A stretch of 64,000 bases of DNA, from contig NC_057737.1 of the NCBI RefSeq assembly GCF_004010195.1, forward strand, positions 11,532,290-11,596,289, read 5' to 3'. Source of the DNA: Chiloscyllium plagiosum. Lineage: Eukaryota. Numbering within the stretch: position 1 is the stretch's first letter; each line of letters starts with the position of its first letter. Below are positions 5,792 through 59,748 of this stretch, in pieces. Position numbers and translations under genes: made by a program. The notes under the pieces are model-generated. The model ran no database searches, was not told the origin of the DNA, and was given only the letters and a program-made list of their open reading frames with translations.

Positions 5792-5969
5792 TCCATGATT
5801 TGGAGATGCCGGTGTGGACAAAGTTAAAAAACAAAAATCACACAATACCAGATTGTAGTCCAACAGGTTTATTTGGAAATACAAGCTTTCGAAGCGCTGC
5901 TACTTCATCAGCTACAGCTTCCAAATAAACCTGCTGGACTATAACCTGGTGTTGTGCGATTTTTAACAC
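5792..5969. mobile_element. Short fold-back Penelope-like element (family A) with hammerhead motif on - strand (5880-5914)
   Basis: Inverted arms GTTAAAAA..TCACACAATACCAG..GTCCAACAGGTTTATTTGGAA / TTCCAAATAAACCTGCTGGACTATAACCTGGTGTTGTGCGATTTTTAAC. Minus-strand core CTGATGA-AGTAGCAGCGCTTC-GAAAGCTT. Flanked by CATCT(G)TGGGA at 5782-5791 and 5970-5980. Confidence 0.7.
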
Positions 5970-6019
5970 CATCTGTGGGAGGAGGAGCGGGTGAGCTTCA
6001 GATCCCTAACAGCCGCTGT

Positions 6020-6153
6020 TCATTGATCACACATCAGTCTGAGGTTGGTACATACTACATTACCCCGCCTTCCCTCAGCGAGCCAATCGCTTCCCAAACC
6101 GGGACGAGCTGATGTCAGGCGATTCTTCCTTCACCAATCCCACAGAGAGCACC
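6020..6153 (+). promoter_or_regulatory. TMEM97 proximal promoter / 5' UTR
   Basis: Local CpG enrichment, GC-box-like CCCCGCC (~6064), CCAAT boxes (~6083, ~6134), strong Kozak ACCATGG at 6151-6157. Confidence 0.55.
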
Positions 6154-6273
6154 ATGGCGTCTTACAGCCGTTTGCTCGAGTGGGTCTTTGCCTGCTATTT
6201 TTTCACACACATCCCCATCACTTTAGCCATCGACCTGCAGGCTCTGCTGCCCGGGGACTTGTACCTGCCCGCG
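6154..6273 (+). CDS. TMEM97: TMEM97 (sigma-2 receptor / MAC30) coding exon 1
   Basis: MASYSRLLEWVFACYFFTHIPITLAIDLQALLPGDLYLPA (EXPERA domain HIPIT..IDLQ motif). Donor GTGAGT at 6274, phase 0. Confidence 0.95.
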
Positions 6274-6469
6274 GTGAGTGTTACCTTCCCCCCCGAGCTG
6301 GATGAACTGTCAATATGGATAGGATTCACGGCTCTCACTTAGACTGTGCGAGCCCGTGACTCCCTTTCTGATCCGGAATAAAAACCTCGTGAATTCGTGT
6401 GTTCCCCACACAATCCCTGAGCATCATTTACCCGAGTTCTGAGGTAGAGTCACAAGAGGACTCAACTGT

Positions 6470-7075
6470 GACAGAAACAGAAATTACTGACAAAGTCAGC
6501 AAGACTCTTCTGAAGAAGGGTCACTAGACTCATCGAGTCAGAGAATCATACAGCAGAGAAAAAGACCCTTCGGTCCAACTGATCCATGCCTACCAGATAT
6601 CCTAAATTAATCTAGTCCCATTTGTCAGCATTTGGCCCATATCCCTCTTAAACCCTTCCTATTCATATACCCATCCAGATGCCTTTTAAATGTTGTAATT
6701 ATTCCAGCCTCCACCAATTCCTCTGGCACTCATCCCATACATGTACAACCCTCTGCATGAAAAAGTTGCCCCTTAAGTCCCTTTTATATCTTGCCCCCCC
6801 CCCCCCCCCACCTCCTCACCCTAAACCTTGGCTATTCACCAAACTGAACGCGATATTCGAAAATACTCAAAAGGTTAACTTTGTTTTTCTCTCTCCATGG
6901 ATGCTGCCAGACTTGCTGAGTTTATCAAGCAATTTCTGTTTTTTGTTTCAGATTTCCAACATCTGCAGTTCTATGTTTTATTTTAGTGTTTAACTCGGTC
7001 TCTATCTCTGCAGATGCTGCTTGACATGTTGAGTTTCTGCAGCATTCTCTGTATTTATTTTAGATTTTGAACATT
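6470..7075. mobile_element. Penelope-like short element (family B) interrupted by a CR1 3' fragment (~6533-6850, - strand)
   Basis: CTGAAGAAGGGTCACTAGACTC at 6510 resumes as AAAAGGTTAACT..GATGCTGCCAGACTTGCTGAG after the CR1 piece. The CR1 piece closely resembles 5160-5410. Confidence 0.6.
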
Positions 7076-7579
7076 CCTTTTATTAACCTGGGGATGTTGC
7101 ATTGAAGAAAAGATGGGGCAGCAGTTCCAGTTGAATAAGTTTCCATTGAATAAATTTGAACTGGTTCCAGTTGGGCTGCCACCAATTGGATTTGCTTCTG
7201 TTGCTCCAGTTCCCATCACATTGGTTCCTATTGAACTTTCTGACCTTGTACAGGGATTCATTACCTTCAGTTGCCCCATTTCCTGTTGAGGCAGTTTTCA
7301 CTGGACCGGTTATCATTGCACAGTGAGCGTGTTCTGGATTTGATAGTGTCACTGAGCTCCAGCAATAAAACAGTGCATGTATCCACCATTCTTCGAGACA
7401 CTAATCTTGGACCTGGTTCACAGAAACTCAGGTTTATTCATTTTTTGAGGGACTTGTGTTTAGTTCACATCGCAGTTAATAACTATCCAGCAAACCCCAG
7501 TGGAGTGATTGTCTTATGACCTTGGGTAGTTTTTACACCATGCAGTCGGGCCCTAATATTCCAAACAACATTATTTTCC

Positions 7580-7965
7580 CCCCAGTCACACTTCAGTAAC
7601 TAAATGCAAACATCAACATTGATGCAGCACTAAGTGAGTGCCACACTGCCGGAGGTGCTGACCTTTGGATGAGGCATTTAACCACAGTTCCTCTTGGTTG
7701 GATGTGGAAGATCCTATGGCACTAATTGAAAAAGAGCGAGCGAATTACCCATGTGATGTGACCGTCAATATTTAACTCTCATTCAACAGCATAGGAATGG
7801 ACAGACTATTTGGTCATGCTTAAATCATTGTGGGAGCTTGCTGTACAAAAACTTGCTGTTTCATTACCTACATTATATCAGTGATAACACTTGGAGTAAT
7901 TTGTCAGCTTTAAAGTGCTTTTTGTGAAAGGTACTATATATAAATGAAGGTCATTCTTTCATTTA
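7580..7965 (+). mobile_element. Decayed Deu-domain-like SINE
   Basis: GAAGATCCTATGGCACTAATTGAAAAAGAGC and TTGTGGGAGCTTGCTGTACAAA blocks shared with 31790-32110. Confidence 0.45.
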
Positions 7966-7994
7966 AGCATTGAGTAATTGGTTTAAGGTGCCGT

Positions 7995-9302: not shown

Positions 9303-9447
9303 CTGCAAGATTTATTAAAATGGTACGCAGCTCGATTCAAAGATCCGATGATGTTGGACCCTCCAGCATGGTTTAAAGCATTTATTCTTTGTGAGGCATT
9401 GCTGCAGTTACCTTTTTTTCCTGTTGCAGCTTATGCTTTCTACAAAG
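9303..9447 (+). CDS. TMEM97: TMEM97 coding exon 2
   Basis: TTTCCTCAG acceptor. [48 protein letters not shown]+G. Donor GTCAGT; 145 nt. Confidence 0.95.
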
Positions 9448-10504: not shown

Positions 10505-11712
10505 AAAATGGCTGTTTGCTACTTATCGAGTTTTTTGAAGAAGTAATAAAGAGGATTGATGAAGGCAGGGTGGTGGACATGATCTATATGGATTTCAGTA
10601 AGGCGTTCGACAAGGGAGACTGGTTAGCAAGGTTAGATCACATGGAATACAGGGAAAACTAGCCATTTGGATACAGATCTGGCTCAATAAGGGTGGAGGA
10701 TTATTTTTCAGACTGGAGGCCTGTGACCAGTGGAGTGCCACAAGGATCGGTGCATTTACATAAATAATTTGGATGTGAGCATAAGAGGTATAGTTAGTAA
10801 GTTTGCAGATGACATCAAAATTGGAGATGTTGTGGACAGCGAAGAAGGTTACCTCAGATTACAATGGGATCTTGATCAGATGGGCCAATGGGCTGAGAAG
10901 TGGCAGATGGAGTTTCATTTAGATAAATGCGAGGTGCTGCACTGTGGGAAAGCAAATTTTAGCAGGACATACACTTAATGGTAAGGTCCTGGGGAGTGTT
11001 GCTGAACAAAGAGACCTTGGAGTGCAGGTTCATAGCTCCTTGAAAGTGAAGTCACAGGTAGATAGGATAGTGAAGAATGCGTTTGGTATGCTTTCCTTTA
11101 TTGGTCAGAGTATTGAGTACAGGAGTTGGGAGATCATGTTGCGGCTGTACAGGGCATTGGTTAGGCCATTGTTGGAATATTGCGTGCAATTCTGGTCTCC
11201 TTCCTAGTGGAAGGATGTAGTAAAATTGAAAGGGTTCAGAAAAGATTTACAAGGATGTTGCCAGGGTTGGAGGATTTGAGCTATAAGGAGAAGTTGAATA
11301 GGCTGGGGCTGTTTTCCCTGGTGGGTCGGAGGCTGAGGGGTGACCTTATAGAGATTTACAAAATCATGAGGGGCATGGATAGGATAAAAGACAAAGTCTC
11401 TTCCCTGGTGTGGGGGAGTACAGAACTAAAGGGCTTAGGTTTAGGGTGAGAGGGGAAAGATATAAAAGAGACCCGAAGGACAACATTTTCATGCAGAGGG
11501 TGGTACGTGTATGAAATGAGCTAAGCAAGTGGTGGAGGCTAGTACGATTGCAACATTTAAAAGGCATCTGGATGGATATATGAATAGGAAGGGTTTAGAG
11601 GGATATGGGCCAGGTGCTGGCAGATGGGACTAGATTGGGTTGGGATAGCTGGTCAGCAAGGACAAGTTGGATCAAAGGGTCTGTTTCTGTGCTGTACAGC
11701 TCTATGACTCTA
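10505..11712 (+). mobile_element. CR1-like LINE ORF2 (RT) remnant with 3' end
   Basis: Fragments SKFADDIKIG, WAEKWQMEF, RPLLEYCVQFWSP, IERVQKRFTRMLPG, with frameshifts and stops. Confidence 0.92.
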
Positions 11713-12915
11713 AGATGAGAGTGAGAGTAGATCATTTGATACTTTGAGTCTGCTCTGCCATTCAGAAGATCACGGCTGATCTGAATGGCAGAGCATATCT
11801 GACTGCCACTGCACCTTCCCCTCCCCAATGTAACCCTTGATTTCATTATCTCCTTTACGTAACACAGTTTTTAGGTATAGGTCCATTGTTTTCCACTAGC
11901 AACAAGTCTTTATAAACATTAATGCACAAGTATATAGATGATTGGTCTAATTTCAACAGATTTTCACCTAACATTGCACATCTGTTAGGATCTTAACTTC
12001 TAATCTCTAATCAGACTGGTGCCATGTACATCCGGAGGAACTCCTATTGCTAATTTCCTGTAACCACACTACACTGATTACCTTGGTTCCCAATCTCAAA
12101 ACGGGATCTTTCGCTCCTCAAAGCTTTTCAAATTCAGGGATTTCTCCCAGATAGTCCACTTAGGTCTTCTGCAGCTTGGTCATTCAACTACTACTTCCCC
12201 ACTTCCTAGTTCTTGTCAGTGGCTATGGTCTGCACTGTTTATGGCGTTGGTTTCTTCAATAAGCTCAACGATACCTCATTTATTATAAGCAAAATGATTC
12301 TTAACTAGTTGCACTACTTATTGTTTAAATCAAAACTAAGCTACTACTCAGATTTAAACTATGTCTCTTTAATCCAAATGTATACAATCATATGACAGAT
12401 GAGACAGTACAAATCTGGAGAGTTTTTAAAAATATAAATGGGTGAAACACCCCGATGGATCAAGGATCTGAACTCAAAGGATAGAAGAAGTGAAGATTTC
12501 TCATGGTCCAGTCAAATTTCCAGTTGATCCAATTGTAATGCAGTGACAGCAGCAATGGAAAATCTTTAGATGAGAGTTGTTTCGATGAGTGTGAATTAGA
12601 AATAACAGATCAATTTTAATTAAGTTTAAAATGCAGATTTATGGAACTTTGTTGAATTGCCAGAAGATATTTTATTAAAAGAGATATTTATGAAGCTTGC
12701 CCAGCTGTATAGAGAGATGTTTCTTGTTGCTGCTAGCATCTTGGTGGTTTGTTCCTTTAGCTGGTGTGTTCTGAAAGCAGCAACTTTAGTTCAGATGTTG
12801 TTTCTAGGGACTCTTCCAAATGATCCTATCCAGTTAAAGCCATAAGACACATCTCTTTTGTTTCTCAAAAACTTTGACTGTCTGCTTTTCACAAAGCCAT
12901 TTAACTTATCAAACA

Positions 12916-13012
12916 AAAACAAATTTCTGGTGAATCTCAGCAATATTTGGCAGAATCTATGGGAAGAAAACAGAGTTAACATTTCGGGTCCAGTGACTCT
13001 TCATCAGAACTG
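12916..13012 (-). mobile_element. Single-arm Penelope-like short element (family B) with hammerhead motif (12974-13011)
   Basis: Minus strand AGTT-CTGATGA-AGAGTCACTGGACCC-GAAATGTT-AACT. Possible duplication ACTT(A/T)TCAAACA at 12904-12915 and 13013-13024. Confidence 0.65.
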
Positions 13013-13049
13013 ACTTTTCAAACAGTTTCATATTCCTGTTACTTGTGGT

Positions 13050-20626: not shown

Positions 20627-21000
20627 GTGTTGGGATGTCATGTTGAGATGTACTGGACATTGGTGAAAAGTCTTCTGGAATACTGTGTGCAGTTCTGGTC
20701 TTCCTGCTATAGGAAGGTTATTATTGAATTGGAGAGGGTTAGAAAAGATTTACAAAGATATTGCTGGGAGTGGAATGTCTTCAGTTATAAAAATAGGCTG
20801 GATGGTGAGTGTGGTTAGTGTGTGGAATGAACTGCTAGAGGAAGTGATGAATGCAGGCACAGTTACAACATTTAAAAGACATTTAGATAAGTACATGAAT
20901 AGGAAATGTTTGGAGGGAGATGGGCTAAATGCAGTCAAGCTGTACTCATTTAGTTTGGGAACATGGTCGGTGTGGACTAATTGGACCATGCTGTATGCCT
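20627..21000 (+). mobile_element. CR1-like LINE 3' fragment (internally deleted)
   Basis: LLEYCVQFWS and VWNELLEEVMNAGTVTTFKRHLD motifs. Confidence 0.85.
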
Positions 21001-27204: not shown

Positions 27205-27442
27205 AAGTAAACTAAAGCAAGGCTGCAAATGAAAATGATCAACATAAGATTTGCTTTCTAGGTTTATTAAGAGGAGGGATCCATGCTGAAAGTAATTGAA
27301 TCGATACTTTTAGTGAGGTCAAGTCAAAGGAAAGAGTCCCCTAGTCAGCCTCCAACACTGATTTATTTTGAAACTCTGCCACCTGTGTTTCTCTGTGATA
27401 GATTAGAAAGATTGTCTGCAAAGTCTCTCTCATAAATCACCA

Positions 27443-28200
27443 TAGAGTCATAAGAGATGTACAGCACGGACACAGACCCTTCGATCCAATCCGTCCATGC
27501 CGACCAGATAACCCAACCCAATCTAGTCCCACCTGTCAGCACCCGGCCCATACCCCTCCAATTCATATACCCATCCAAATGCCTTTTAAATGTTGCAATT
27601 GTACTAGCCTCCACCACTTCCTCTGGCAGCTTATTCCAAATTCGTACCATTCTCTGCGTGAAAAAGTTGCCCCTTAGGTCTCTTTTATATCTTTCCCCTC
27701 TCACCCCAAACCTATGCCCTCTAGTTCTGGACTCCCCGACGCCAGGGAAAATACCTTGTCTATTTATCCTATCCATGCTCCTCATGATTTTGTAAACCTC
27801 TGTAAGGTCACCCCTCAGCCTCCGACACTCCAGGGAAAACAATCCCAGCCTGTTCAGCCTCTCCCTATAGCTCAAATCCTCCAACCCTGGCAACATCTTT
27901 GTAAATCTTTTCTAAACCCTTTCAAGTTTCACAATATCTTTCTGATAGGAAGGAGACCAGAATTGCATGCAATATTCCAGCAGTGGCCTAACCAATGCCC
28001 TGCACAGCCACAACATGACCTCCCAACTCCTGTACTCAAATACTCTGACCAATAAAGGAAAGCATACCTAACGCCTTCTATACTATCCTATCGACCTGCG
28101 ACTCCACTTATAAGGAGCTATGAACCTGCACTCTTAAGGTCTCTGTTCAGCAACACTCCCTGGGTCCTCACCATTAAGCGTACAAGTCCTGGTAAGAATT
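27443..28200 (-). mobile_element. CR1-like LINE 3' fragment
   Basis: MLPGLEDLSYRERLNRLGLFSLECRRLRGDL...FKRHLD; same family as 10505-11712. Confidence 0.92.
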
Positions 28201-28855
28201 GCCAATCTTCAGTGGCCCTCTGTTCTCAATGTATTGAGTTAAAAACTTTCAACATCAATTAAAAAGACCTCAATAGTCTGATCCCATCCACCATACCCAG
28301 GTAATCTTCCCAAGCCCTACTTCCCTGTTAAGCATTCCAACATTCAATCTGTACTTCATGCTCTCATGCACTCTTTCCCGCCACTTCAAAATATTTTTTG
28401 AAACTAACAATGCTACAAGACTGGGCTCCTTCTACTTTTGTCCCTTTTAGCATATCCCACTCTCTTCATCCATCAATGGCTCAAGCTAGCTAGGTACCCC
28501 ACAAGTTCAAGCATTCTCTCCTTAAATCTCTTCCAGTTCTAATGTCTTTAAAACTCCTCTTAAAAACCCACTGCCCAGCAAGCTTTTAGTATCTACTCCT
28601 AAAATCCTCCTTTAGTTCAGTTTTCTTTTATTCAGTCAGGCACAGCTGACAAGGACAGCCAGTTTATTCAATGCCCATCTGTGGATGCTCTTGAGAAGTT
28701 GGTAGTTAGCCACCTTCTTGAACTGGTGTAGTCTGTATGGCGCAAGTAACACCCACAGTACTATTAAGGAGGAAATTTTAGAAACTTGACACAGCAATGA
28801 AGAAATGGTTCTACATTTACAAGTTAGAGTGGTGTATGTTAGAATAACAGGACCT

Positions 28856-29064
28856 GAAAAATGTGTTGCTGGAAAAGCGCAGCAGGTCAGGCAGCAAAGG
28901 AGCAGGAGAATCGACGTTTCAGGCATAAGCCCTTCTTCAGGAAGAAGGGCTTATATCCGAAACGTTGATTCTCCTGCTCCTTTGATGCTGCCTGACCTGC
29001 TGCGCTTTTCCAGCAACACATTTTTCAGCTCTGATCTCCAGCATCTGCAGTCCTCACTTTCTCC
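28856..29064. mobile_element. Short fold-back Penelope-like element (family C) with hammerhead motif on - strand (28911-28943)
   Basis: ~85-bp inverted arms centred near 28940 and a one-sided tail at 29030-29064. TSD TAGAATAA(C/A)AGGACCT at 28840-28855 and 29065-29080. Core CTGAAGA-AGGGCTTATGCCT-GAAACGTC. Confidence 0.85.
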
Positions 29065-30149
29065 TAGAATAAAAGGACCTACAAGAATTAGGAGGATCAT
29101 TCCCTTTGACCCCTCAAGCCTGTGCCATCTAGCTGTGGTCTTAACTCCACTTTTCTGTCAGCCCCATAACCTTTGATGATCAAAAATGTACGTAACTCAG
29201 CCTTGAATATATTCAATGATCCAGCCTTCATTGTTCTTTACGGAAGAAAATTGTGCAGACTAATAGCCTTCAGAAAAATGTCTCATCTCAGTCTTAAATG
29301 GGAGACCCCTTAACTTTTAAGCTGCGAGCCCTAGATCTAGATTTCTTCATGACAAAAAACACCTTCTTGACATCTGCTCATGCAAGCCCCCTCATTCCAG
29401 TATGTTTCAAATAACAGCTTCTCTCACCCTTCTAAATTCTAATGTGTACAAGCCCAACCTTCCTCAAAATAATCCTTTCAATCCAGGGATAAATTGAGTG
29501 AATGAGCTCTGCAAAACACAGTTTTCTATATTTCCTTTGTGCTATCTGCAAAATTATCCACCACACATTTGGCCCCTTCATCCAAAGTCACTGTAACTGA
29601 TCTGAAGACTGAAGTAAAGACACAGGTAGCTCAAGCAACTATGATGGTTAACCCACCAAGAAGGTGCAAATTTCTTTTTGATTTTCACATAAAAGGGTGG
29701 TAGTTTGGGGAGTGCCAACGATATATCAAGTTATAAAGAATGATAAACCAAAGCTGATAGTGCCTTACAGCCAAAGAAGCTTTCAAGCCTTGTCACTGTT
29801 GTAAAAACAATTTCCAAACAGCAATGTATAGTTCCAATTCCCATAACACTAAGATACTTCAACAAGATCAACTCTCAAGTACTGAATAACAGCAGAGGGT
29901 TTTCGAACTTTCTTCATGAAGTCAGAACTTTAACAGAGGGAGATAGGCCTTGTAGCACTTCTCTGCACTGCTTTCAGCACTTCCATGTTCCAGTGACCAG
30001 AGGTGGACACATACAGAAAATTCGAACTGAGATATTAGAGAATCATGAAAACTTATGTATTCATTATACAAACGTTTGATGCAAGTACAGAAATCGGGGG
30101 CAGGACAGTAATATACTTAAATTAATTAGCATTGAGAGAAGGTATTAGC

Positions 30150-31260: not shown

Positions 31261-31311
31261 CAGTACATCAGACAAGAACACCACCCTTGTCAGCAGGAAA
31301 GATTACAAAGT

Positions 31312-31399
31312 TGAAACTTTATTGCTGGAACAGCACAGCAGGTCAGGCAGCATCCAGGGAACAGGAGATTCGACGTTTCGGGCACAGGCCCTTCTTCAG
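31312..31399 (-). mobile_element. Single-arm Penelope-like short element (family C) with intact hammerhead motif (31368-31402)
   Basis: Minus strand TTC-CTGAAGA-AGGGCCTGTGCCC-GAAACGTC-GAA. Flanking direct repeat CAGGAAAGATTACAAAGT at 31294-31311 and 31397-31414. Confidence 0.8.
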
Positions 31400-31789
31400 G
31401 AAAGATTACAAAGTCTGGATTGGATTTGAATGGATTGGAGGGTGAATGGTAATGGCAGCTGATGTCACATTGACAATTCCGAATGAATACATCAAGTGCA
31501 GGTAGGTAAAAGGCCATAGGAAGGAGTCCAAGTTGGGGAAGAGTGTTGGAGGCAGGTGAAGGGGTGTCTGTTGGTCAGGGAGTGAACTCTTGTCCAACTG
31601 AATAGGCATGGAGGCAAAGGCAATGGCAGAAAAATTCAATGTCATGTTGTCCGATTGAGGCAGGGATACAAAGAGGTAAAACTAAGTCCTTTGTTGACTA
31701 CAGAATGTTCAGCACATAACAGGAGGTCAGAATAGATAGTAAATGCTCGACAAGAGCTGGGGTCATGGGAAAGGCATAATTTAGGCTAC

Positions 31790-32900: not shown

Positions 32901-33273
32901 TTCGGAGGGGGTGGATGGGTGGGGAGTGAATTACCTGACTAAAACAATCTAACTCGCTGTGGACGGTGCTGTGAGAACGCGAGTTCAGCAAAACGGACTG
33001 GGCGCCCATCGACAAAGGGATGGACATGTCAGCAACCGTCTCAACAGAAGCGAGTTCACGTTCCTCATGGCAGCTGGAAGAAATGATCGTAGAGGTTGGC
33101 ACTCTCTCAGACTGACCGGAGACCTTTAACTGAACCGTTTAACTGGGCTAGGCTATTGGTAAAGGGTGGAACTGGATATTCCCAAGGCTGCATCGGTTTC
33201 AACACGTTCTCCCCTTGGCCTCACCAATACTGCTGAGCATCCCCACTGTTTCTAAATGACCAGACTGTACTCA

Positions 33274-33388
33274 CGATGTGGAGGTGCCAGTATTGGACTG
33301 GGGTGCACAGAGTTAAAATTTGCACAACATCAGGTTCCAAATAAATCTGCTGGACTATAACCCGATGTTGTGTGATTTTTAACTTTGT
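33274..33388. mobile_element. Short fold-back element (family A), centre deleted, no hammerhead core
   Basis: Arms match 5792-5969. Perfect 14-bp TSD CCAGACTGTACTCA at 33260-33273 and 33389-33402. Confidence 0.8.
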
Positions 33389-33849
33389 CCAGACTGTACT
33401 CAGCAACAGCAATTTCTACTAATGTTGGAAAGATGAAAGAAGCCTTCAGCTTTTGTTGCTTTCAGTCCCTTTGTTACTGGTTCCACTCCTCCTTAGTAAT
33501 TGTCTGCAGTTGAATCTGGCTATTTCCAACATTAACATTCAATTTGACTTCAATAAAAGACTCCCAAACAAAGACTGCCTAGTTCCACCCCTGAAACATA
33601 GCCTGACCCTGGTTCAGTTCATCTGCTGAAACAAATTCATGTGTTTGTTATCTTCAGACACTGCTATTCCAATGTGTCTCAGCTTCCCATGATTTACCCT
33701 TCAAAACTTGTCATTCTGCCATATGTTGTACGTGTACCAAGTCCCTTTCAGTGTCCATTCTGCCCAATTAAGTGATATTGCATTTTGAAGTTTTCATCCT
33801 TATTTTCAGATTTTGCCAGAACTTTATCCTTCCTTATCTGATTTTGATC

Positions 33850-35270: not shown

Positions 35271-38200
35271 GACTTGGCAAGAAGGCAGCGATTCAGTAGA
35301 ACTGCCTTGGATAGCTCTGCCTAACAGCCAAGGCATATTGGTGGGTTTTTTTTTAACAATCCCTGGCCAACTTCTATGGAGAAATTGTTAATTTAAAAAC
35401 ATGAAGAACACATATTCATTGACAATTTGGAGTCTGACGGATGCCAAAAGGAAAAGGAGCAAGCAAACAGCAGTATGAAGGACACTCCCCCACAGCAGCA
35501 GCCTCTCCCGAACACCCGGGGGACCTGACAGACTCACAGAAATTGGCAGCAGCAATGGCGAGACTTACCATGAAGGTTAAGGCTGTGATTGAGGCGATCC
35601 GTGCCCAAGTCCAACCCATCGTGTCCATGTTGCAGAAGCATGAACGGGGAGCTCCAGGTCCTCGGGGAGCGGATAGAGGAGGTGGAGGGTTGAACCACAG
35701 GCTTGGAAGTGGCTATCGGGTCCTTGTCCGGACGGATGCAGGTACTGAAGCAGGAAGTGCAGGCCTTGCGTGATCAGGTCGACGACCTCGAAAGTCAAGG
35801 TAGGAGGACGAATCTTTGGATTGTTGGGCTCACAGAGGGTGAAGATGGTGGGTAGCCAGTCAGCTTGTTTGAAAACTGGCTGCCGCAGTTCCTGGGCCTT
35901 CAAATTGAATCTGGACGGCTGCACATTGAGGGGCTGGGCCTGTACAGTGCCCCACCTGGTCCTATCGCACTTCCTCACATACAGGTACAAGCATAGAAGC
36001 CTCCAGATTACTGGGGAAAGATCCACAGGCACTGCTGCACAAGGGGTCAAAGATCATGTTTTTCCAGGACTTCTCAGCTGCTATAATTTGAGAGAGGAAA
36101 TCCTTCGATGAAGTTAAAAAAAAAGCTGAGGAACCTGGGCATCCAGTACTCCATGAGGTACCCCGCGGTGCTCCATTTCAGCCACGCAGATTCAGTTTAT
36201 ATGTTTGACTGCGGATAAAGCCAAGAACTTTGTAGACACTTTAAAATTATCCAATTAGTCTGAAGAATACGGTTAATGTTCCTCCTGTTTTCCTTCTATC
36301 CCTGTGTTTTCCCTTTCCCTTTTTTCTCTTTCCATAATTTTTAAAAAATTCTTGGAATATATTGTTCCTATTATATTTTTATAACTGGATTTTATCACAG
36401 AATTTTGTGGGTGCCTTTTGTTGTTTTCCCCTTTTTTTATTCTTTTAGTCACAAGTTGGGTGATATGGAACCGGGGATAGGAGTGCTTATTCTGACTTTG
36501 TCGTCTTTTGTTGACTTAAGGGTCATCTCCTTGTTTATTTATTTATTTTTGCCTAAGGCTGTGGCACAGTCCAGGCCTGAAGGAGCTGTGCAGGAGGGAA
36601 TGGGTAGGGCATGTGCCCCCTGTCGGCAGGGGGGAGAGTCTCCTGTTCAAGATTTTATGTTTGGTTTCTTTGTAGTTTTTTGGTAGCAATAGTTGTTTGT
36701 AGTTAGGATAGGGTATTTTTGTATACACAATTTTGCGACTCTTCATTTACTTGTGCTCGGCACATTGCAAGCAGGGTTCTCCTCGGGGGTTCAAGGATCT
36801 CTGAAAGGGGATAGGGCTAAGTGTCTTGTTAAATGATGCACCTGGAACATCAAGGGAAGTCATCCACCTGTTAAAGGAAAAAAGGTGCTAGCTTTAAGGG
36901 GAAATGTCTTGATATCGTCTGTTGCAGGAAACCCATCTTGATGATGGGGGACATCTGAAGTTATAACAGGGGATTATGATTGGTTATTCTTTTCATTCTT
37001 TACTACTAAAAGTAGTGAAGTGGCTGTACTTATCCAGAAAAATCTTCCATTCACATTATTAGAGTAGGTGAAAGATGAGCAAGGACAGTTTGTGATACTC
37101 AAGGCCTAATACGTGGGGAGGAATATAGCATTTTAAATGTCTACTGTCCTCTGGCACATCCCCTCAAATTTTTGATTATTGCCTTTTCTAAGTTGAGTGC
37201 CTTTGGAACACGGCACATTATTATGGGGGGGGGGATTTCAATTGTCCTTTGGATCCAACAGTGGACAGGATGCCTTGTGGGCCCTCAACTATTTCTTCGC
37301 AGGTCAAGCAGGTGGTTGATTTATGGGAGGAGTTGGGGCTGGTGGACATTTGGAGATATCTTCACTCTACCGGCGGGACTTCATTTTTTTTCAAACTCAC
37401 ATAAATGTCACACAAGGATTGGTATTTTTTGGCTCCCTCGACACTTCTGGATTCAATTATGGGTTGTAAAATTGGGAATATAGGTATCTCTGATCACACA
37501 ACGGTATATTTGGAGGTTAAGGCCAAGAGTGAGTGGCTAGGTTTGTGGCACTGGCATCTGGATCCTTTTCTCCTTAAGGATTCCAAATTTGTGGAATGCT
37601 TTTTGAGGGAGTTTCAGGACGACTTGACTATCAACTTGAGCACAGCTAGTAGTCCATCTATGCTATGGGAGACCGCTAAGGCCTCTGCTAGGGGATTAGC
37701 TATTTCCTGTTTGGCTAGCCGGAAATGACCGAGGGGAGAACAGCAGCGTCTACTTGAGACGTGGCCGAAAGCTGCTGAGATGGCATGTTTTGTGAGGCCT
37801 TTGGTAACCAAGCTACAGCAGATCACAGCCCTTTGGGCTGCCTTGAATTCAATACTTACACAAACCGCAAAGAAAGAACTTGCTTTTGTGAAACAAAGGC
37901 TGCTCGATATGGGGATAGGCCAGCGAAGTATTTAACATATCTGACTAGAAAAAAGCGTGCTCCTTAATCCATTACTGCAGTTAGAAACTGCGCCGGGGTC
38001 CTTACATACGATGTCAAAAGGATTAATGAGTCTTTTTGGTCTGAAGGTTGCGAGGATAGGAGAGCCAAGATGGAAGCTCTTTTTTTTAAGAGCCTGGACC
38101 TCCCCGGGGACAACCCTGGAAAAGGCCTCCCTCCTTAATGCCCCCTTGACGGTTCAGGAAATACAGGAGGCAGCTAGGCAACTTCAAAGTGGGAAAGCAC

Positions 38201-40897
38201 CTGGTCCTGATGGTATCCCGGGTGAGTTTTACAAGGAGTTTATAGGGATTCTGTCAGGGTCGATGCTAGAAATGTACAATCACTCCTATATGCATGATTG
38301 CCTACCACCATCTTTGGGAGAAGCTAATATTTCCTTCATTCTTAAGAAAGGAAGGGTTCCTGAAGATTGTGCCTCATACAGGTCCATCTCTCTATTAAAT
38401 TTAGATTTTAAGTTTCTGTCTAAGAGTTGGGCGCTAGGATTGGAGAAGGTATTTCCCCATATTGTCAAAGAGGGCCAGGCAGTTTTTATAAGGGGCTGTA
38501 GGTCTTCTAATAATATTAGAAGGTTGCTGAGTGTGAACCAAGCATGTCAGCAGCAATCGATCCAGGGGTTGGTGATTTCCTTAGCTGCAGAGAAAGCATT
38601 TGACCAGTACCTCTTTTATGCCTGAGAGCAGTTTGGGTTGGGTGGGGTCTTTGCTAGGTGGGCAGAGGTTTTATATTGCCACCCTCTAGCCACAGTCATA
38701 ACCAATGGGGTGAATTCTGGGAACTTTAGGATTGGCAGGGGTAGTCATCAAGGCTGCCCCCTCTCACTTGTTGTTTACGTTGGTGATAGAGCAGCTGGCA
38801 AAGGTCATTCGTCAGAATGTCCACATAACCACACTGGAAGTGGGATCGAGGGTACACAAGATTGCACTGTATGCGGATGATGTCCTTCTGTTTTTATCGG
38901 GCCTAATGACCTCCATACTCCATCTGATACATTGTATTAATTCATTTGAGGCTTTTTCAGGATGTAAGATCAACTTTGCAAAATTGGAGGCTATGCCTTT
39001 GGGGGACCTTAAGGAAATGCCAGTGGTTGAAGGTGACCCTAGGTTCCCCTTTAAGTGGTCAAGGGCAGGTTTCCAATACCGAGGAATCTTTATTACCTCC
39101 CATGTTTGATCGGTTATTTCGTACTAATTTTGCTCATCTGCTCAACAATATTTGGCAGGATCTTCAGAGATGGGAGGCTGTTCCAATTTTGTGGTTGGGC
39201 CAAATAGCCATTATTAAGATGAATGTCCTCCCTCATCTGCTTTATCCTATGCATATGCTCCCTATAATGTTTCCCAGGTCAACATTGCAGAAACGTATTG
39301 GTTGGTTTCATTCTTTCGTCCGGCGTTGAGTGGCCCCTCATCAAACTTACTAAATTGCAGTTGCCTCAAGGATGGGAACGAGTTGATTTCCCAGAATCAG
39401 GAGATATCAGTTGAATTCCCCACTGTCCTTTGTGTGCAATTGGGAAGGTAACAATCCAGGCTCAATGTGGCTGGATATCGAGGTCTCCCAGGGAAAGTGC
39501 CCTCTTATTAACCTGTTGCTCATGGATAAGATGAGGACAGTTACGGACCACTGCTGGAACCCCATTGTTATTAGTACAGTCAAGGCATGGAGAGCAATGC
39601 ATCAGAGTGAGGGTTGCTTATCCAAGACTTTGCTATTCACTCCATAGTTGCTATGCTGGGGTTCTGACCAGAGATGATGCACTCAGAGTTCAAACTTTGG
39701 GCAGCGAGAGGAGTTTCCAGCTTGGAAGATTTGTTTGAGGGTGAGATTGTGATGTTTTTCGAGAAACCGAGCTGAATATACGGGCTGCCCAGCAGAGATC
39801 TTTTCCATTTTCATCAGCTTAAGGATTTCATCCAGAAGGAAACTACGCTTCTCACTAAGCCCTATAAGCCCGATATAGAGAGGATGTTGCTACATGCCAC
39901 AAGCACCCTTTCGGTTAATGCCCTTTAATTGCCTGCTGGATGATAGGGCCTGGCAGAATATTAACCGGTTATGTGAGGTTTGGGAGCAAGAGCTAGGAGT
40001 GGAAATCTCTTCTGGAACGTGGGAGGACATGGGAGAACATGCGAAAGATCTCAATTTGTAATAGGGCATGCGGCTATGCAGTTAAAAGTTCTGCACAGGG
40101 TTCATTTGGCACTGGATTGTCTGGCCAAATTTTAAAAAGGGGCATCTCCAATGTGCCTCTAATGTAAAATAAGTGTAGGTACTCTTACCCATTGCTTCTG
40201 GACATGCCACAGGCTCCATGTTTATTGGAGCTGTGGTGGGAGAGGTAGGGTATTGAAGACTAAAGTTAGAGTAGACCCGATATCTCTCCTAGATCTATTG
40301 AATTTGTCATCTTTAGACGGGCATAGGAAGAAACTACTTAATATTCTTATTTACTGTGCACAGAAGAATATTCTGATGAATTAGGTGTCTGAGAACCCGC
40401 TAGGCTTGCTTTGATGGTGGAAATTAATTATGGCACACATTCTCGTGGATCTTTTCACAAATACGGTGCACCACATAACAGACATTTTTATTTATAAGGC
40501 ATGGCGGCCCTTTTTGAGTTATTTGGACACAGATCTGTCTGGTATGTTAACTAGGGCGTTTGTTTAACCAGGGTGGTTAGGTTTGCTGAGCCCTGGAGAG
40601 GGAGGGGGGCTCCTGAGTTAATACGGGTATATATACAACACTCCCGTTTTTTGTTTGGGAGCTTTACACTGAGCATTGTTATTTTGTGTTTTTTTTTGTA
40701 TTATTAGTCACTTATTTATTGGTATTGTTTTGCACAGTGTTTGGTTTTGTTTTGTATTATTGGGTAGGTTAGTAGACAGTAGTTGTATTGTAATTTGTGG
40801 GGTTTTTTGTTGTACTGGTATTTGTTAAATTTTCAATAACTTTATATTGTTGTAAAGTCAAAAGGTTTTTTCACTAATAAATGTATTTACACAAAAA
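35271..40897 (+). mobile_element. Full-length decayed L1/Tx1-clade LINE (ORF1 ~35441-36260, ORF2 ~36810-40570)
   Basis: Endonuclease motifs (TWNIKG, LQETHL, ISDH), RT motifs (GKAPGPDG, YRSISLLN, QGCPLS, LYADD), C-terminal C..C...H...C at ~40155-40207, T-rich 3' UTR, AATAAA plus short A tail. Putative TSD GTATGTA at 35264-35270 and 40898-40904. Many stops and frameshifts. Confidence 0.9.
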
Positions 40898-43249: not shown

Positions 43250-44212
43250 CAAAGTTTGGGTGAAGATTTGTAGCTTGGGTGCTCATTGTTGTGGTTCTGT
43301 TCGCCGAGCTGGAAATTTTTGTTGCAAATGTTTCGTCCCCTGTCTAGGTGACATCCTCAGTGCTTAGGTGCCTCCTGTGAAGCGCTTCTGTGGTGTTTCC
43401 TCCGGCATTTATAGTGGCCTGTCCCTGCCGCTTCCGGTTGTCAGTTTCAGCTGTCCGCTGTAGTGGCCGGTATACTAGGTCCAGGTCGATGTGTTTGTTG
43501 ATGGAGTTTGTGGATGAGTGCCATGCTTCTAGGAATTCCCTGGCTGTTCTTTGTTTGGCTTGCCCTATAATGGTAGTGTTGTCCCAGTCGAATTCATGTT
43601 GTTTGTCGTCTGCGTGTGTGGCAACTAGGGATAGCTGGTCGTGTCGTTTCGTGGCTAGTTGATGTTCATGGATGCGGATCGTTAGCTGTCTTTTGGGGGC
43701 CTCCTGCGAAGCGCTTCTTTGATGTTTCCTCCGGTGTTTATATTGGTCTGTCCCTGCCGCTTCCGGTTGTCAGTTTCAGCTGTCGGCTGTAGTGGCCGGT
43801 ATATTGGGTCCAGGTTGATGTGTTTGTTGATGGAGTTTGTGGATGAATGCCATGCCTCTAGGAATTCCCTGGCTGTTTTTGTTTCGCTTGCCCTATAATG
43901 GTAGTGTTGTAGTGGGACAACACTACCATTATAGGGCAAGCGAAACAAAGAACAGCCAGGGAATTCCTAGAAGCATGGCACTCATCCACAAACTCCATCA
44001 ACAAACACATCGACCTGAACCCAATATACCGCCCACTGTAGCGGACAGCTGGAACTGACAACCGGAAGCGGCAGGGACAGGCCACTATAAATGCCGGAGG
44101 AAACACCACAGAAGCGCTTCACAGGAGGCTCCCAAGCACTGAGGATGTCACCTAGACAGGGGATGAAACGTTTGCAACAAAAATTTCCAGCTCGGCGAAC
44201 AGAACCACAACA
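43250..44212. mobile_element. Penelope-like element remnant (family D): GIY-YIG 3' end plus pseudo-LTR in inverted arms, with hammerhead motifs at 43324-43363 (-) and 44136-44175 (+)
   Basis: AREFLEAWHSSTNSINKHINLDPIY (PLE GIY-YIG C-terminus). Two minus-strand segments followed by one plus-strand arm. Perfect TSD ACTACTGAGATATT at 43236-43249 and 44213-44226. Confidence 0.9.
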
Positions 44213-44724
44213 ACTACTGAGATATTTTACTGTATGATTGCTTAAGTAAAAAATATACAGTGATACTTTGTAGGAAGGAGCAGGTGCAGGGGTTCAAGCA
44301 GTGTTTACATTTGGTTAGTGTGATATGTTAGGTCAAGGAAGGCTGTGTTTTTCTGCCCAGTACTTTTTTAAAAGTCTGCCCATTTATTTGCATCTTTGTC
44401 AGTCTTCTGTTGCGTGGGTGTAATTGAACGTTAATATTTCAAAGAGTGTATGAGGCTGTCATCAGCATGATTAAATATTTGTTTCAACCTTGAGAAATCT
44501 TGCTGAGTCATTAGTCTGATTCAGCAATTCATTTAATAGGTGTGGAAGGACATTACTCATTGTATTGCATACAAAGTTCAGAACAAAAGTGTACTGTCCT
44601 CTTTTGTCCCTTCCCCATAACTTTGTTAGGTTTTGTTTCCTTTCATGAATAATAAAGAATCCACGTCCAGATATAAACTTACATATTCTCAGAATGTTTG
44701 ATTGTGGAACATTACTGACATATT

Positions 44725-45827: not shown

Positions 45828-45940
45828 GGGAGAAAGTGAGGACTGCAAATCAGAGCTGAAAATGTGTTGCTGGAAAAGCGCAGCAGGTCAGGCAGCATCC
45901 AAGGAGCAGGAGAATCGACATTTCGGGCATGAGCCCTTCA
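45828..45940 (-). mobile_element. Single-arm Penelope-like short element (family C), truncated inside the hammerhead core
   Basis: Matches 28856-29064. Perfect TSD ATTGAATTTTTTAT at 45814-45827 and 45941-45954. Confidence 0.85.
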
Positions 45941-52643: not shown

Positions 52644-52696
52644 CCTGTTGTGAAGCTGCTACATAACAGAAGCAACAACAAATATTCCTATACTAG
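52644..52696 (+). CDS. TNFAIP1: TNFAIP1 coding exon 4
   Basis: PVVKLLHNRSNNKYSYT+AG. CAG acceptor, GTACGA donor; 53 nt. Confidence 0.95.
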
Positions 52697-54991: not shown

Positions 54992-57900
54992 CATTGTAAT
55001 CAGATGGATAGGTGTGAACAGTATTTACATTTTAAAACACTTTTTATCTACTAATGATCATCAGATGGGTTATCATGGAACATGAAGGCAACTGACTGAA
55101 GAGAGAAAAAAACCTGCGCTTTCAAGGTTAATTTTCTTTCATTTGTTATAATGTTGATTTTTGTTTGTTTAAAAAAAAAAGCCTTTGAGCTGAAATGCTT
55201 GTCAAAAGTTGTGAATTAATTGGCCTTAACTCCATTATAGGTTGTCTTTCTGTTGATCTTAAAGTAGTTTCAAAAATCTGAAACCTCAATTTGATGGAAT
55301 TCTGGCTTACCTCTAGCAATGGAGGTGAAGTTTGATGCCAGTGCCATTGCATACTCCATAGAGGGAGGAAACAATAACAATGAGAATTTTCCTCTCATGA
55401 TTGCTACATGCCTTTTGCTTCAGACCATGAAGGCCTGGGATTGAGTGCACCTCTCCCCTTTTTTGTCACTGTTTTTGGCTTTGGACATTAAGAGGATTCA
55501 TCCTCAAATATCAGAAGAGTACATTTGAGTCGAAACCTGTCTGCTAATTTCATACTCGTTTTGCTCCTATTTCTGTTCAATATGGATCAAGATACTACAG
55601 TGCAATTACTTTCTGAACCATTGAGTGTGCCTTAGTTTACAACTCTTAAGTTCATCATTCATTCGTTTTTTTTCATTCATTCATTTTTACATTCAATGTT
55701 TTAGGAGTGCAGGAGGAGAAAACCGTTTTAGTTACCATTCTTCTCCAAGAATAATTCTTCCACACCAACTATGTCAGCACCTTTATCATTTCAGACACCT
55801 AACATAGCATTTATAAAATGGTGCATTGCATAGTGTTTGGAGGTGAGGTCTAGTCAAAATCTATCTGAAATCCTAGTGTTTAATACCTTTATTTCCAAGT
55901 CTTAATGAACTATGATTCTCAACTCTTTAATATGTGATGTTTGTTTTTTATTTGTGTTATGGTGAAATATATTTTACATGGTGTGTTTTTAATGGAACCT
56001 CCAAGGAAAATCTTTTAATAAGTAGCATTGGCAGTCTGGGAAGATAATGTGTTTACTTATCATTTTAAAATAATGGAATTGGATTTGCATCTGAAAATTA
56101 TGTTAACTGGACCAAAATGTTAAGTTTCTATTTTTGTATGTGTACACTGCCCATTGCTTATCTTTGTGTGAACTTGAGATGGTATATTTGACACTACAGT
56201 GCACTGTTTGCATCAGATAATGGTATGTTGGCTGAAACTGACTTTATGTAATGTTTGTGAAACTAACTGAACATTAGTCATATATGAATTGATGAATTAT
56301 GTGAGTAATTCAAGTTAGACTTTCAATCGGAGAAATTTTATGGGCTTGTGACTTAGCCAAGATGCAAGTCAGGATTAGACTGTTTTCAGATTGTGGTGAG
56401 ATTCTTCCTTTTTCACTTGCCCCTGCCCTGAATCATACCAGTTGCTGGCTGACTATAGAGTGGATTTGACAACAACTGAAGCTGTGATTAAGAATCAAGT
56501 CTGCACTCTTAAGTCTGGAATTGAGCTCCTTTTACCTTCATCTAAACAAAATAACTTCCTTTCAGTGTGGCTTTCTGCTTCACTAGGAACTGTTTCTAGG
56601 ATGCACTTTCTTTCATTATAATACTTTATCATGTTATGCAATTTATATCAGAAGAAAACATGCCCTCAAGGGAAATCCTCTTCATGGCTCAGACAAAACA
56701 GCCTAGAACTTTAATCCCAACTATCTTGAGGATGACCATACACAGTGAGGGCCATTGGCAGGCCTACAGTAAACTAATTCACTGCCCTCATTAGGATGGT
56801 ACTGCTGCATGTGAGTGCTAGTAATGGCCCCAGAGGTTCTCTGAGAGAGCAAGAAAACATAGGAGTTGAACATGAGCAATAGTCAACAACAGCCTGTAAA
56901 AGGGTGATTGGAACATTCTTGCTCCAGAAGGCAGGTTTTGCTTTAAAGTTGACATGCTGCAGGGTCACAACCTCCAGTCACACTTTTTAAGGGTTGATGG
57001 TATACGTGTTGAGGCCCTGAAATACTTTTAGCCATGAGCCTGTGGGTTTAACATCAGAGAATATATACAAACCCTAAACATATATTGACCAGTCCTAACT
57101 AGAGTGCGTGATGCAATTTTAGCAGAGGAAGAGCATATGCTTATCACCTGCAATTTTCAAACATTAGGTACACATTTTAACCTACTGAATTTCTAGGCTA
57201 GTGCCAAATACTATGTCATCTCAGTACTGTTTAAATGGCTGTACGGGTTTTACTGCCAGCCATCATATCTGACCGATAGTGTTGACTAAACTCAGTCACT
57301 CATCAACAGCGGTGCAAAATCTCCAAAGTTGTTTGTATTTCACTTCTTCAGTCAAAATTGTGTGAGAAGGGATAAACAAATCATCTCAAAGATGTAAAAA
57401 TTGATGCCAAAGTATCTGCTAAATTGCTTGACCACCAATCTTTGATCCCCCCCCTCAAATGTAAATAAATTTGAATGCATATCCAAGATGAGTTTCGATT
57501 GTGTACAATCACAGGATATAAGTAATTTCTTTAGAAAGGATAGTTTTTGTTTGCTTCAATGATAAATGGTCTGGCATTATCACTTTTATTATAAATTGGT
57601 TTCAAAGTTTACATTTTGGTTTCCTAAGCAACATGTAGATAGCTGTCACAATCCAATAAACAAATCTGGATTATCACTACATGTAACTGATCTCTAACTT
57701 CTGCAGTTCATTGGTCCTGTAGATGAAATATCCCAGTATTTCATAGTTGCAACTCAAGAAGGTTTACATGCTAACCTAAACACCAGTTTTGCAGTATTTT
57801 AATCAATGAATTATATCAATGATTGACACGCAGGATAAGAGAAGCAGTTGAGGAAAAGGGAACTTTTTAGAGTCAATATTGATTTTTGTCTTATAATTTG

Positions 57901-58385
57901 AATGCAAATATATTGATGTCTACTTACATTTCAGTCCTGTGTGAATTTCCAAGTCTTTTTTTTTAATGAGCTAATTTGCAAAATCTTCGAAGGCACAAAT
58001 ATTGCAGTGATTGAGGTGCTGCTTGCGTCTGTGAATATTGTAACATCAAATATTGCAATTAAGCTGTGAAATGGTTGTTTAAATTGTGGTTGCTGAAAGG
58101 CTTACAGTGAGCCCAGTTGATTAACTAACACTGGAATACTCACCCACGAAACCACTGTGTAAATAAAACTGCTCAGAATTTTTGACACTGTGATGGATTT
58201 TTTTTCCCCACAAAGTTGCTGTATCGCACATATTTAAAACAACCTGTAGCAACACTATTTGTAAGGAATAACTTTCTGGAAGGGTACTTCTACTTCTAGA
58301 CCAGAGTGTTGCTCCTTTTTAAATATTGTACTAAAAAATTAAATATTTACTAACATTAATAAAATGTGGTGTTGCTTGAGTGTAG
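54992..58385 (+). other. TNFAIP1: Probable long (~3.4 kb) TNFAIP1 3' UTR with several poly(A) signals
   Basis: Repeat-poor AT-rich stretch. AATAAA at 57655, 58162 and 58358, the last followed by GT-rich sequence. Extent inferred. Confidence 0.55.
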
Positions 58386-58734
58386 TCTGTCTTTTAAATA
58401 CAATTGTGATTCTAATCTGTGTACCTTTTGTAAACATTTCAGTATTTCAACAGAATCAAGTTATCAGCTTAATTCTGGATTAGGCATAATAAAGATAGCA
58501 AGATCATTTTTCAGCTTTAAGAATGTAAATAATGTCCATGTAAATTCATCCATGATAGTGAATGTAAATGTTATCTAATGCCAAAAACTAATCATTTAGG
58601 TTGCAGACCATTAGAAGATTCTTCAATTTTGTTTCAAAATGTGATAGTTACAACTTCAGCTGAGCACTGTCTACCAACATGAAAATTGTTGAAATTTTAT
58701 CATTGGTATTGAATCCCTGTAATGTGGAAACAGG

Positions 58735-59748
58735 ATGTCGGTTTGCTCGCTGAGCAAGATTTGTATTTCAGATGTTTCATCAACGTACTAGGTAACATCA
58801 TCAGTGAGGCAAAAGTGAGTACTGCAGATGCTGGAAATCAGAGTCTAGATTAGAGTGGTGCTGGAAAAGCACAGCAGGTCAGGCAGCATCTGAGGAGCAG
58901 GAAAATCGACATTTCAGGCAAAAGCCCTTAATCAGGAATCAGGTTTTTTTTCCCCGAAATCCATCACAGTGTCAAAACTTCTGAGCAGTTTTATTTACAC
59001 AGTGGTTTCTTCAGTTTTCCTGCTCCTCGGATGCTGCCTGACCTGCTGTGTTTTTCCAGCAGCACTCTAATCTAGGCCCCAACATCATCAGTGAGCCTCT
59101 GGATGAAGCACTGGTGGCATGGCCTGCTTTCTATTTGTGTTTAGGTTCCTTGGGTTGGTGACGTCATTTACTGTTATTTTTCTCGGGGGGGTGGTAAATG
59201 CAATCTAAGTCAATGTGTTGGTCGATAGAGTTCTGGTTGGAATGCCATGCTTCTAGGAATTCTCGTGCATGTCTCTGGCTTGTCCTAGGATGGATGTGTT
59301 GTCCCAGTTGAAGTGGTGTCCTTCCTCATCTGTATGTAAGGATACTAGTGAGAGTGGGTCATGTCTTTTTGTGGCTAGTTGATGATAGTATCCTTACATA
59401 CAGATGAGGAAGGACACCATTTCGACTGGGACAACACATCTATCCTAGGACAAGCCAAACAGAGACACGTACGATAATTCCTAGAAGCATAGCATTTCAC
59501 CCCGAACTCTATTGACAAACACATTAACTTGGATCCCATTTACTACCCTCTAACAAAAATGACATCACCCACCCAAGGAAACCTAAATACAAAAGAAAGT
59601 GGGCCATGCCACCAGTGCTTCATCTGGAGGCTCACTGATGATGTTACCTAGTATTGTGACAAAAGGTCTAAAAATGAACTTTCCAGCTCAGTGAGCAAAC
59701 CTACATCCCGAACCTCAACCTGAGCTAAAAATCTTCTCAAAACTCGCT
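58735..59748. mobile_element. Penelope-like fold-back element (family D-related) inserted into a V-SINE
   Basis: Plus arm translates TDEEGHHFDWDNTSILGQAKQRHVR*FLEA*H...SIDKHINLDPIY; turn near 59385. Hammerhead motifs at 58768-58807 (-) and ~59632-59670 (+, mutated). Duplication A(A/G)TG(T/A)GGAAACAGG at 58721-58734 and 59749-59762. Confidence 0.85.
58809..59080. mobile_element. Nested short fold-back element (family C variant) containing captured host sequence
   Basis: Inverted arms CTAGATTAGAGTGGTGCTGGAAAAGCACAGCAGGTCAGGCAGCATC / GATGCTGCCTGACCTGCTGTGTTTTTCCAGCAGCACTCTAATCTAG. Perfect TSD AACATCATCAGTGAG at 58794-58808 and 59081-59095. Confidence 0.85.

Follow-up and report, generated by a model that had tools for sequence, protein, structure and literature searches.

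Hammerhead-bearing insertions in the genome of the shark Chiloscyllium plagiosum are probably ends of Penelope-like elements copied from uncut RNA

Minimal hammerhead ribozymes of the kind carried by Penelope-like elements (PLEs) have been known since 2014. In the available text of Cervera and De la Pena (2014, PMC4209133), the hammerheads of the PLE pseudo-long terminal repeats (pLTRs) are weakly active as dimers. Penelope is listed for the whale shark (PMC8455134), and Li et al. (2026, bioRxiv 10.64898/2026.07.22.740005) report short retrozymes with a hammerhead from a single chondrichthyan genome. A literature search, with Repbase, Dfam and Lunse 2017 outside its scope, found no report, among the records listed, of PLE hammerheads in sharks, of PLE copies bounded on the 5′ side by the hammerhead or of PLE copies with a cap-like G. 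Here we describe hammerhead-bearing insertions in a 64,000-nucleotide stretch of the Chiloscyllium plagiosum genome (GCF_004010195.1, contig NC_057737.1, positions 11,532,290 to 11,596,289; hereafter the window) and in a random sample of the same genome. To meet this type of hammerhead is in itself ordinary, and the added value is a mechanistic clue to PLE replication. The short copies are probably PLE pLTR ends, and in three of five families (A, B and C) most of them start at the 5′ edge of the hammerhead, probably by run-off of reverse transcriptase (RT) from capped, uncut RNA.

A first-pass annotation of the window had named seven hammerheads, at 5880-5914, 12974-13011, 28911-28943, 31368-31402, 43324-43363 and 58768-58807 on the minus strand and at 44136-44175 on the plus strand. 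All seven were read directly at these positions with the layout it described, and its predicted cut after 44172, in the 44136-44175 motif, is correctly placed. A strict descriptor matched four sites in the window versus 0.07-0.12 in Markov controls (60 simulations per order, maximum 1), and a relaxed descriptor matched seven versus 0.43 (30 simulations, maximum 3). The relaxed matches were six of the named sites and one non-family match at 62857. The 5880-5914 site passed neither descriptor because its first stem I pair is G·G, broken at a fold-back junction. An Rfam scan of the window at E<=10 returned no hammerhead family, only hairpin look-alikes on fold-backs.

The sites belong to five families, and at least four had been claimed. 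In the window, family A is present at 28911, 31368, 45829 and 58808-59075, B at 5880 and 33271, C at 12974 and as old remnants, D at 43324 and 44136, and E at 58768 and 59635. The description of the families as unrelated-looking holds only in part: A and C have a tail in common and group with one another, and D and E are kin. Conservation and covariation were examined in 157 copies that reach the 5′ side of the core (of 158; one has an N), found by BLAST and not by the descriptor. Stem pairs were counted by anchoring on the core, as MAFFT misaligned D and E against A, B and C. The core positions CUGANGA/GAAA/NUH in type I order are kept in 118-154 of the 157 copies, position by position, and the core is intact in only 86. 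An unpaired base after A9 is present in the cores. As the annotation had stated, helix III is a palindrome, ACGU in A, C, D and E and AGCU in B, with CpG decay. The decay strikes G12 as well as helix III. This pattern of decay is expected for dead copies of selected master elements. The claimed compensated changes of the stems between families were also borne out. Stem I pair 1 is C-G in A and B, U-A in C and A-U in D and E; pair 2 is U-A in A and C, A-U in B and C-G in D and E; and stem II pairs 2-4 likewise switch between families. For five of the seven pairs, pairing was 0.82-0.90 versus shuffled means of 0.49-0.68 (maxima 0.60-0.75), above all 500 shuffles. Stem I pair 3, which is U·U in most A copies, did not beat the shuffles (0.45 versus 0.37, maximum 0.46), and neither did the invariant G10.1-C11.1 pair. 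The shuffle ignores the relatedness of the copies, and thus the real evidence of covariation amounts to about five family-level states.

All five families were traced to PLEs with an open reading frame (ORF) for RT and a GIY-YIG endonuclease (EN), A, B and C being Neptune-like and D and E Poseidon-like. The clade names were assigned from sequence features (the Cys linker, the ATG at stem II and the EN comparison) and not from a tree. Every family continues upstream into a PLE ORF. This agrees with the placement of minimal type I hammerheads in PLE pLTRs by the annotation, and it argues against the separate non-coding elements that it proposed. Upstream of long A and C copies lie the RT thumb, a Cys linker and the GIY-YIG domain (for C only the EN tail was seen), and the same pieces are found upstream of B, beyond a CA-rich untranslated region. 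In B, a long stretch of CA-rich simple repeat separates the stop codon from the hammerhead (loci L100-L124). A 443-aa stretch of family A matches 387 proteins of 777-2215 aa at E<=1e-30, and RT and often GIY-YIG Pfam marks occur among the matches listed. The B endonuclease piece matches 113 of the 120 listed A-stretch homologs at E<1e-3, and a CX2-5CxxC motif is carried by 113 of these 120. The linker motif of A is CHRRNCKTC, and a Cys motif is also present in B. A Cys-rich linker is a mark of Neptune and Nematis (Craig et al. 2021, PMC8557442); since Nematis shares it with Neptune, the linker separates A-C from neither clade. Furthermore, a 514-aa open frame at L099:430-1971 carries an LTR-type RT piece in frame into the family A RT, probably as a nested insertion.

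The D and E copies in the window include the end of a GIY-YIG ORF. D continues into VVY..YVG..RIHEH..FLEAWH, and locus L092 shows more of the D ORF. In both families an open frame starts from an ATG at hammerhead stem II. In D, the stop codon of one ORF and the start codon of the next, in another frame, both lie within the hammerhead (43344; L092:4371-4390). The D EN had no match at E<1e-3 among 120 Neptune-like homologs. The Poseidon label of D and E, whose linker region fell in a gap, is presumably right and is in part an assumption of ours. [quoted passage not shown]

The random sample consisted of 100 stretches of 10 kb with 980,332 called bases. The descriptor search that the annotation had proposed gave 100 relaxed matches in it; 87 fall in four clusters defined by the downstream tail, about 4 further singletons look like family members, and about 10 of the 100 belong to no family. 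On 393 kb, the relaxed descriptor gave 41 matches versus 1-5 in Markov controls. About 90 family cores per 980 kb correspond to one core per ~11 kb. Arms were found by BLAST with long natural copies as references; before 5′-end mapping, 17 of the 53 references were dropped by a filter for inverted arms and one more by hand. The search gave 309 arms, of which family A accounts for 172, C for 59, B for 58, E for 11 and D for 9, and these arms merge into 239 loci. This is one locus per 4.1 kb, which bears out the claim of a dense population (about one per 6 kb), and the loci cover ~44 kb of 980 kb, about 4.5% of the sampled bases. Arm length has a median of 99.5 bp, and 95% of the arms are <=270 bp. 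The proposed size of ~100-270 bp fits these arms and fails for the D and E copies in the window, which measure 300-1000 bp and carry GIY-YIG coding remnants. By extrapolation, the genome may hold several hundred thousand loci and roughly 3 x 10^5 family cores.

For the mapping of 5′ ends, position 0 was the predicted cut site, and a rate is the number of 5′ ends in the random sample for every 100 nt at risk. At -26 to -40 the rate was 5.9 in A (68 ends), 5.3 in B (26) and 8.7 in C (25). Elsewhere A and B had 0.2-0.9 upstream and 0.2-0.5 from the cut site onward, and C runs higher (0.6-2.1). Inside the 5′ half of the core (-13 to -25) the rate was about 1.1-1.5, and at +1 to +10, just past the cut site, only 0.4-0.6. 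In A, B and C the 5′ ends are thus enriched about 10-fold where the hammerhead begins on its 5′ side, and the cut site shows no such pile-up. In young non-inverted A copies the edge rate was still 3.0. In D and E there was no pile-up, with 0 5′ ends in 285 nt at risk (20 arms). Moreover, sequence depth at the hammerhead edge falls ~4-fold in RNA reads and ~6-fold in two contig sets. The likely reason why the stubs start at this edge is run-off of RT at the capped 5′ end of uncut RNA.

The base next to the edge was examined in single A subfamilies, with exact whole-genome counts for one of them. The exact 26-mer core of this subfamily occurs 35,633 times genome-wide; it is preceded by CATTC in 15,396 cases and by a non-C base plus ATTC in 5,724. 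The A four bases before CUGA lies in a YCATTC context that we take to be initiator-like. Beside this A, the non-C base is G in 3,444 of 5,724 cases (60%) versus a background of 26%, and one base over, in a hand count used as control, G was found in 13 of the first 100 of 6,146. In a second A subfamily, G was found in 44 of the first 100 of 2,214 (hand count; p=8e-5), and 16 of the A's come from perfect palindromes. The first 48 loci of the A subfamily had 30 G, 11 A and 7 T, two of them being a duplicated locus. When bases supplied by an inverted arm were removed, G remained in 22 of 36, and when those supplied by the target site duplication (TSD) were removed as well, in 15 of 28 (p=0.002). 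At arm junctions that the arm does not explain, G was present in 7 of 8. A chimeric origin of the G from the 3′ strand of stem I was ruled out, as a core lay upstream in 0 of 30 G loci. An unencoded 5′ G is a known mark of RT copying a cap (PMC4534009), and the extra G before the A-family stubs is likely such a cap signature.

Four loci continue past the long A tail with shared sequence. A search with this post-tail sequence gave 30 loci in which the tail runs into an ATG and the N-terminus of the ORF, whose residues 1-67 align to residues 1-67 of a 909-aa RT protein. In these 30 loci the ORF breaks off at variable points, often followed by a second copy that starts at the hammerhead edge. [quoted passage not shown] The long A tail (29035-29067 in the window) ends in a pyrimidine tract and TAG, resembling a splice acceptor, ~35 nt before the ATG of the ORF. 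An intron in the family A leader is possible, as in D. virilis Penelope.

TSDs of 12-19 bp were found at 8 of 12 window loci tested versus a maximum of 11 in 40 random pairs. The copies have two alternative 3′ ends, 35-40 nt apart. Among 50 head-to-head pairs of A or B, 39 combine one long and one short 3′ end, 5 have two alike and 6 include an unclassed end; these two classes of 3′ end represent the one-sided tail reported for PLEs. Each locus has junctions of its own, and the upstream flanks of edge-starting copies are unshared between loci. Taken together, the short copies read as TSD-bounded, 5′-truncated and often head-to-head PLE ends rather than demonstrated self-propagating elements. 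Only 3 same-strand pairs of cores within 400 bp were found among the 309 arms, and inverted arms lie on opposite strands; therefore, dimer cleavage in cis is unavailable to most copies. The window holds no array of head-to-tail units each with a hammerhead. A targeted search for A partial tandems gave 1,811 first-look candidates, and the tandems vary in length and junction. Among loci L197-L226 (e.g. L198, L203, L221 and L223) are tandems in which ~200-350 nt separate two A hammerheads on the same strand, and some of them contain three units. Such same-strand partial tandems appear to be dimer-competent and could seed retrozyme-like arrays.

From the mapped distributions of ends we infer the priming sites, the cap and the jumps in the following scheme. 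The A-family RNA would be a capped RNA polymerase II transcript that starts at the A four bases before the core; with this start, the hammerhead would occupy the first ~31 nt of the transcript. Priming by RT would take place on nicked target DNA, and the two alternative sites for it in the tail would lie ~90 and ~130 nt from the RNA start; an anole PLE studied in vitro is a precedent. RT would copy the uncut hammerhead and the cap, and then it must jump. A solo stub would arise from a jump to the target, the head-to-head form from fold-back or from union with a second cDNA, and partial tandems from a jump downstream on the RNA. Most stubs would be dead ends. The ribozyme is under selection in master elements; cutting there would take place in a dimer or with the help of protein.

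Several observations weigh against this scheme. The contrast of D and E with A-C rests on 20 arms. The fall of depth upstream of the edge is partly due to subfamily divergence there, and the 5′ ends spread over about ten bases (-10 to +6 around C3) and not over one. The 15,396 of 35,633 cores preceded by CATTC extend at least one base past the proposed start. As family C has only a single long reference, its 5′ ends may be undercounted. In B, the G excess at the single position tested was weak (38 of the first 100, p=0.006). In the RNA run that had reads, no pile of read starts or ends was seen, both strands were covered, and 94% of the aligned reads continue into unlike sequence; these reads look like passive transcription. 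Energy-minimised folds, as monomer or dimer, gave no hammerhead fold for any of the seven sites, the core being non-canonical. Finally, no intact full-length ORF was found, as long open frames ran into assembly gaps at the 15 loci examined.

The pile-up could be a pause site: RT would prime in the 3′ pLTR and stall or fold back after a structured hammerhead, dimeric or bound by protein. The ~10-nt spread of 5′ ends, which rise already inside the core, would fit a pause, and the 5′ bases of stem I are complementary to core bases, with recurring snap-back junctions. However, RT would be expected to stop on the 3′ side of a structure, and there is no excess of ends there; stem II is longer in D and E, yet these families show no pile-up; and a G excess limited to one position is left unexplained by a pause. 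We therefore regard a pause as unlikely.

Another explanation is that the stubs are non-autonomous SINE-like or retrozyme-like elements with their own internal promoter, re-mobilised by PLE proteins. Both the pile-up and the G would also be expected of stubs that begin at the RNA start and contain a promoter, and D. virilis Penelope has an internal promoter (PMC2377424). The copy number of the A subfamily is very high, and long members are missing from three of four C clusters (15 copies) and from one A cluster of 3 copies. Nevertheless, long copies occur together with short ones in the five larger A clusters and in every B cluster, junctions are specific to the locus, upstream flanks are unshared, and the shared downstream sequence is mainly the start of the ORF. 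The template of the anole PLE needs the first 172 nt of the ORF (PMC11167929), which are absent from the stubs, and the tandem arrays typical of retrozymes are rare here (the 3 pairs). These observations make SINE-like elements improbable. They also bear on the idea of the annotation that small ribozyme-bearing retroelements are mobilised by GIY-YIG PLE partners: the dependence on PLE enzymes stands, and a separate non-coding population with its own life cycle is not supported, since long and short copies share the larger subfamilies.

If self-cleavage made the 5′ ends of the template, the stubs would be copies of cleaved RNA. The conserved core and the stems that covary across families speak for this reading. 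It predicts ends at +1, but the rate just past the cut site is that of the background, most stubs span the cut site, and anole RNA with a dead ribozyme still inserts normally in vitro (PMC11167929). The 5′ ends are not set by cleavage, and we give the cleaved template very little credence. Chance matches to a short motif can be dismissed almost entirely: Rfam found no hammerhead and about 10 of 100 sample matches lie outside any family, but the excess over Markov controls, the grouping of 87 matches by tail and the compensatory changes refute a chance origin of the seven named sites.

Run-off from capped, uncut RNA, the reading that we prefer, could be carried further. Neptune-type PLEs might replicate like a minimal retrovirus, with a capped RNA that has the hammerhead first, a strong-stop cDNA and a jump to the 3′ end. 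The strong-stop cDNA would be 90-130 nt long and primed on target DNA at the tail, and cleavage of a second hammerhead at the RNA's 3′ end would leave a terminal redundancy of ~31 nt. The role of the ribozyme would then be to cut the 3′ end or to remove the cap. We regard this extension as doubtful. If it were true, the several hundred thousand stubs would be a fossil CAGE (cap analysis of gene expression) library of failed strand transfers.

The window contains the following insertions. In family A, a fold-back at 28855..29065 has a minus arm with the hammerhead 28911-28943 and the short 3′ end and a plus arm from 28944, which starts inside the core and has the long tail; its TSD is 16 bp (28840-28855/29065-29080). 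A stub at 31306..31405 (minus) has the intact hammerhead 31368-31402 and belongs to the youngest A subfamily (0.4% divergence), with a 4-bp stem II and a GUC triplet, and its TSD (31293-31311/31396-31414) overlaps the first bases of the element. Another A stub, at 45829..45940 (minus), is truncated inside the core and has a 15-bp TSD. In family B, a head-to-head insertion at 5795..5967 consists of a minus arm (5795-5911) with the hammerhead 5880-5914 and a plus arm (5910-5967) without a core, and no TSD was found for it. A second B fold-back, at 33271..33391, has tails only, without a core, and a 17-bp TSD. In family C, a stub at 12915..13013 (minus) starts at the hammerhead 12974-13011 and has a 12-bp TSD (12904-12915/13013-13024). 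Old C remnants lie at 2900..2980 (plus), 5744-5786 (minus) and 6875-6941 (plus), and no convincing TSD was found for them.

The family D insertion (43255..44213) is composed of a minus copy at 43255-43692 with the hammerhead 43324-43363, a partial tandem at 43693-43910 and an inverted arm at 43913-44213 with the hammerhead 44136-44175; its TSD is 15 bp (43236-43250/44213-44227). It includes a remnant of the C-terminal GIY-YIG endonuclease at 43344..43769 (minus), with the stop codon inside the stem II/loop of the hammerhead. The family E insertion (58733..59749) is head-to-head with GIY-YIG remnants, has the hammerhead 58768-58807 (minus) and a decayed one near 59635-59670 (plus), and is flanked by a 12-bp TSD (58723-58734/59751-59762). 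A family A fold-back at 58808..59075 is nested in the E hammerhead. Its TSD of 16-17 bp (58794-58810/59081-59097) duplicates the CUGAUGA box of E, and its own core near 58912-58943 is decayed. At the junction of this nested insertion, 53 bp (58957-59009) are 98% identical to nearby unique DNA at 58148-58200, inverted and ~800 bp away, which suggests a template jump onto local DNA. Apart from these elements, another dispersed repeat family (74-85% identity between copies) is present at 5138-5581, 6529-6805, 10952-11718, 20629-20987 and 27437-28202, and a 226-aa frame at 37945-38625 has a weak RVT_1 match; both are probably remnants of long interspersed elements. Two more open frames, of 199 and 215 aa at 61908-62507 and 63013-63660, had no significant Pfam match.

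These insertions bear on how PLEs form their pLTRs and what their hammerhead does. Tens of thousands of cDNA ends are preserved in this genome to the exact base, and the load is large, about one locus per 4 kb. The ends point to a template that was uncut and, in a Neptune-like family, likely capped four bases before the core, and the Poseidon-like families appear to be organised differently. They give an exact predicted start site, template and cut site.

The hammerheads resemble those of Cervera and De la Pena (2014, PMC4209133) in the type I core, the extra nucleotide after A9, the G10.1-C11.1 pair, the palindromic 15.2-16.2, the short stem I and the many families per genome. In both cases most are single motifs from truncated PLEs, with some opposite-strand pairs. 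The numbers differ, with roughly 3 x 10^5 cores here versus ~4,000 in coelacanth and ~9,000 in Xenopus by different descriptors, and the available text of that paper maps no 5′ ends. A supplement of the paper contains no shark term, and a second supplement may bear on this point. Compared with the endonuclease-bearing PLEs of Craig et al. (2021, PMC8557442) and Arkhipova et al. (2013, PMC3846280), the copies share the head-to-head arms, the one-sided 30-40-bp tail, the inverted 5′-truncated copy, the partial tandems, the TSDs and the microhomology junctions. Neptune has a Cys-rich linker and Poseidon has none (PMC8557442). The available text of the two papers describes neither a fixed 5′ boundary at the hammerhead nor a cap-like G. 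Moreover, the head-to-head form is explained in PMC3846280 by self-priming on an antisense template, whereas our data fit run-off from sense RNA.

The anole Poseidon element PAc (Frangieh et al. 2024, PMC11167929) also has two internal RT start sites that give the tail and an uncut RNA template. As in D and E, its ORF start codon lies at the beginning of stem II; in A, by contrast, ~140 nt lie between the cut site and the ORF start, and the RNA appears to open with the hammerhead. PAc was tested in vitro, whereas the families described here were studied from sequence. The non-LTR retrozymes of Li et al. (2026) are likewise short and non-coding, have a type I hammerhead and derive from PLE pLTRs. 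They are, however, tandem repeats with a hammerhead in each unit, whereas the copies in Chiloscyllium plagiosum are solo or inverted and bounded by TSDs.

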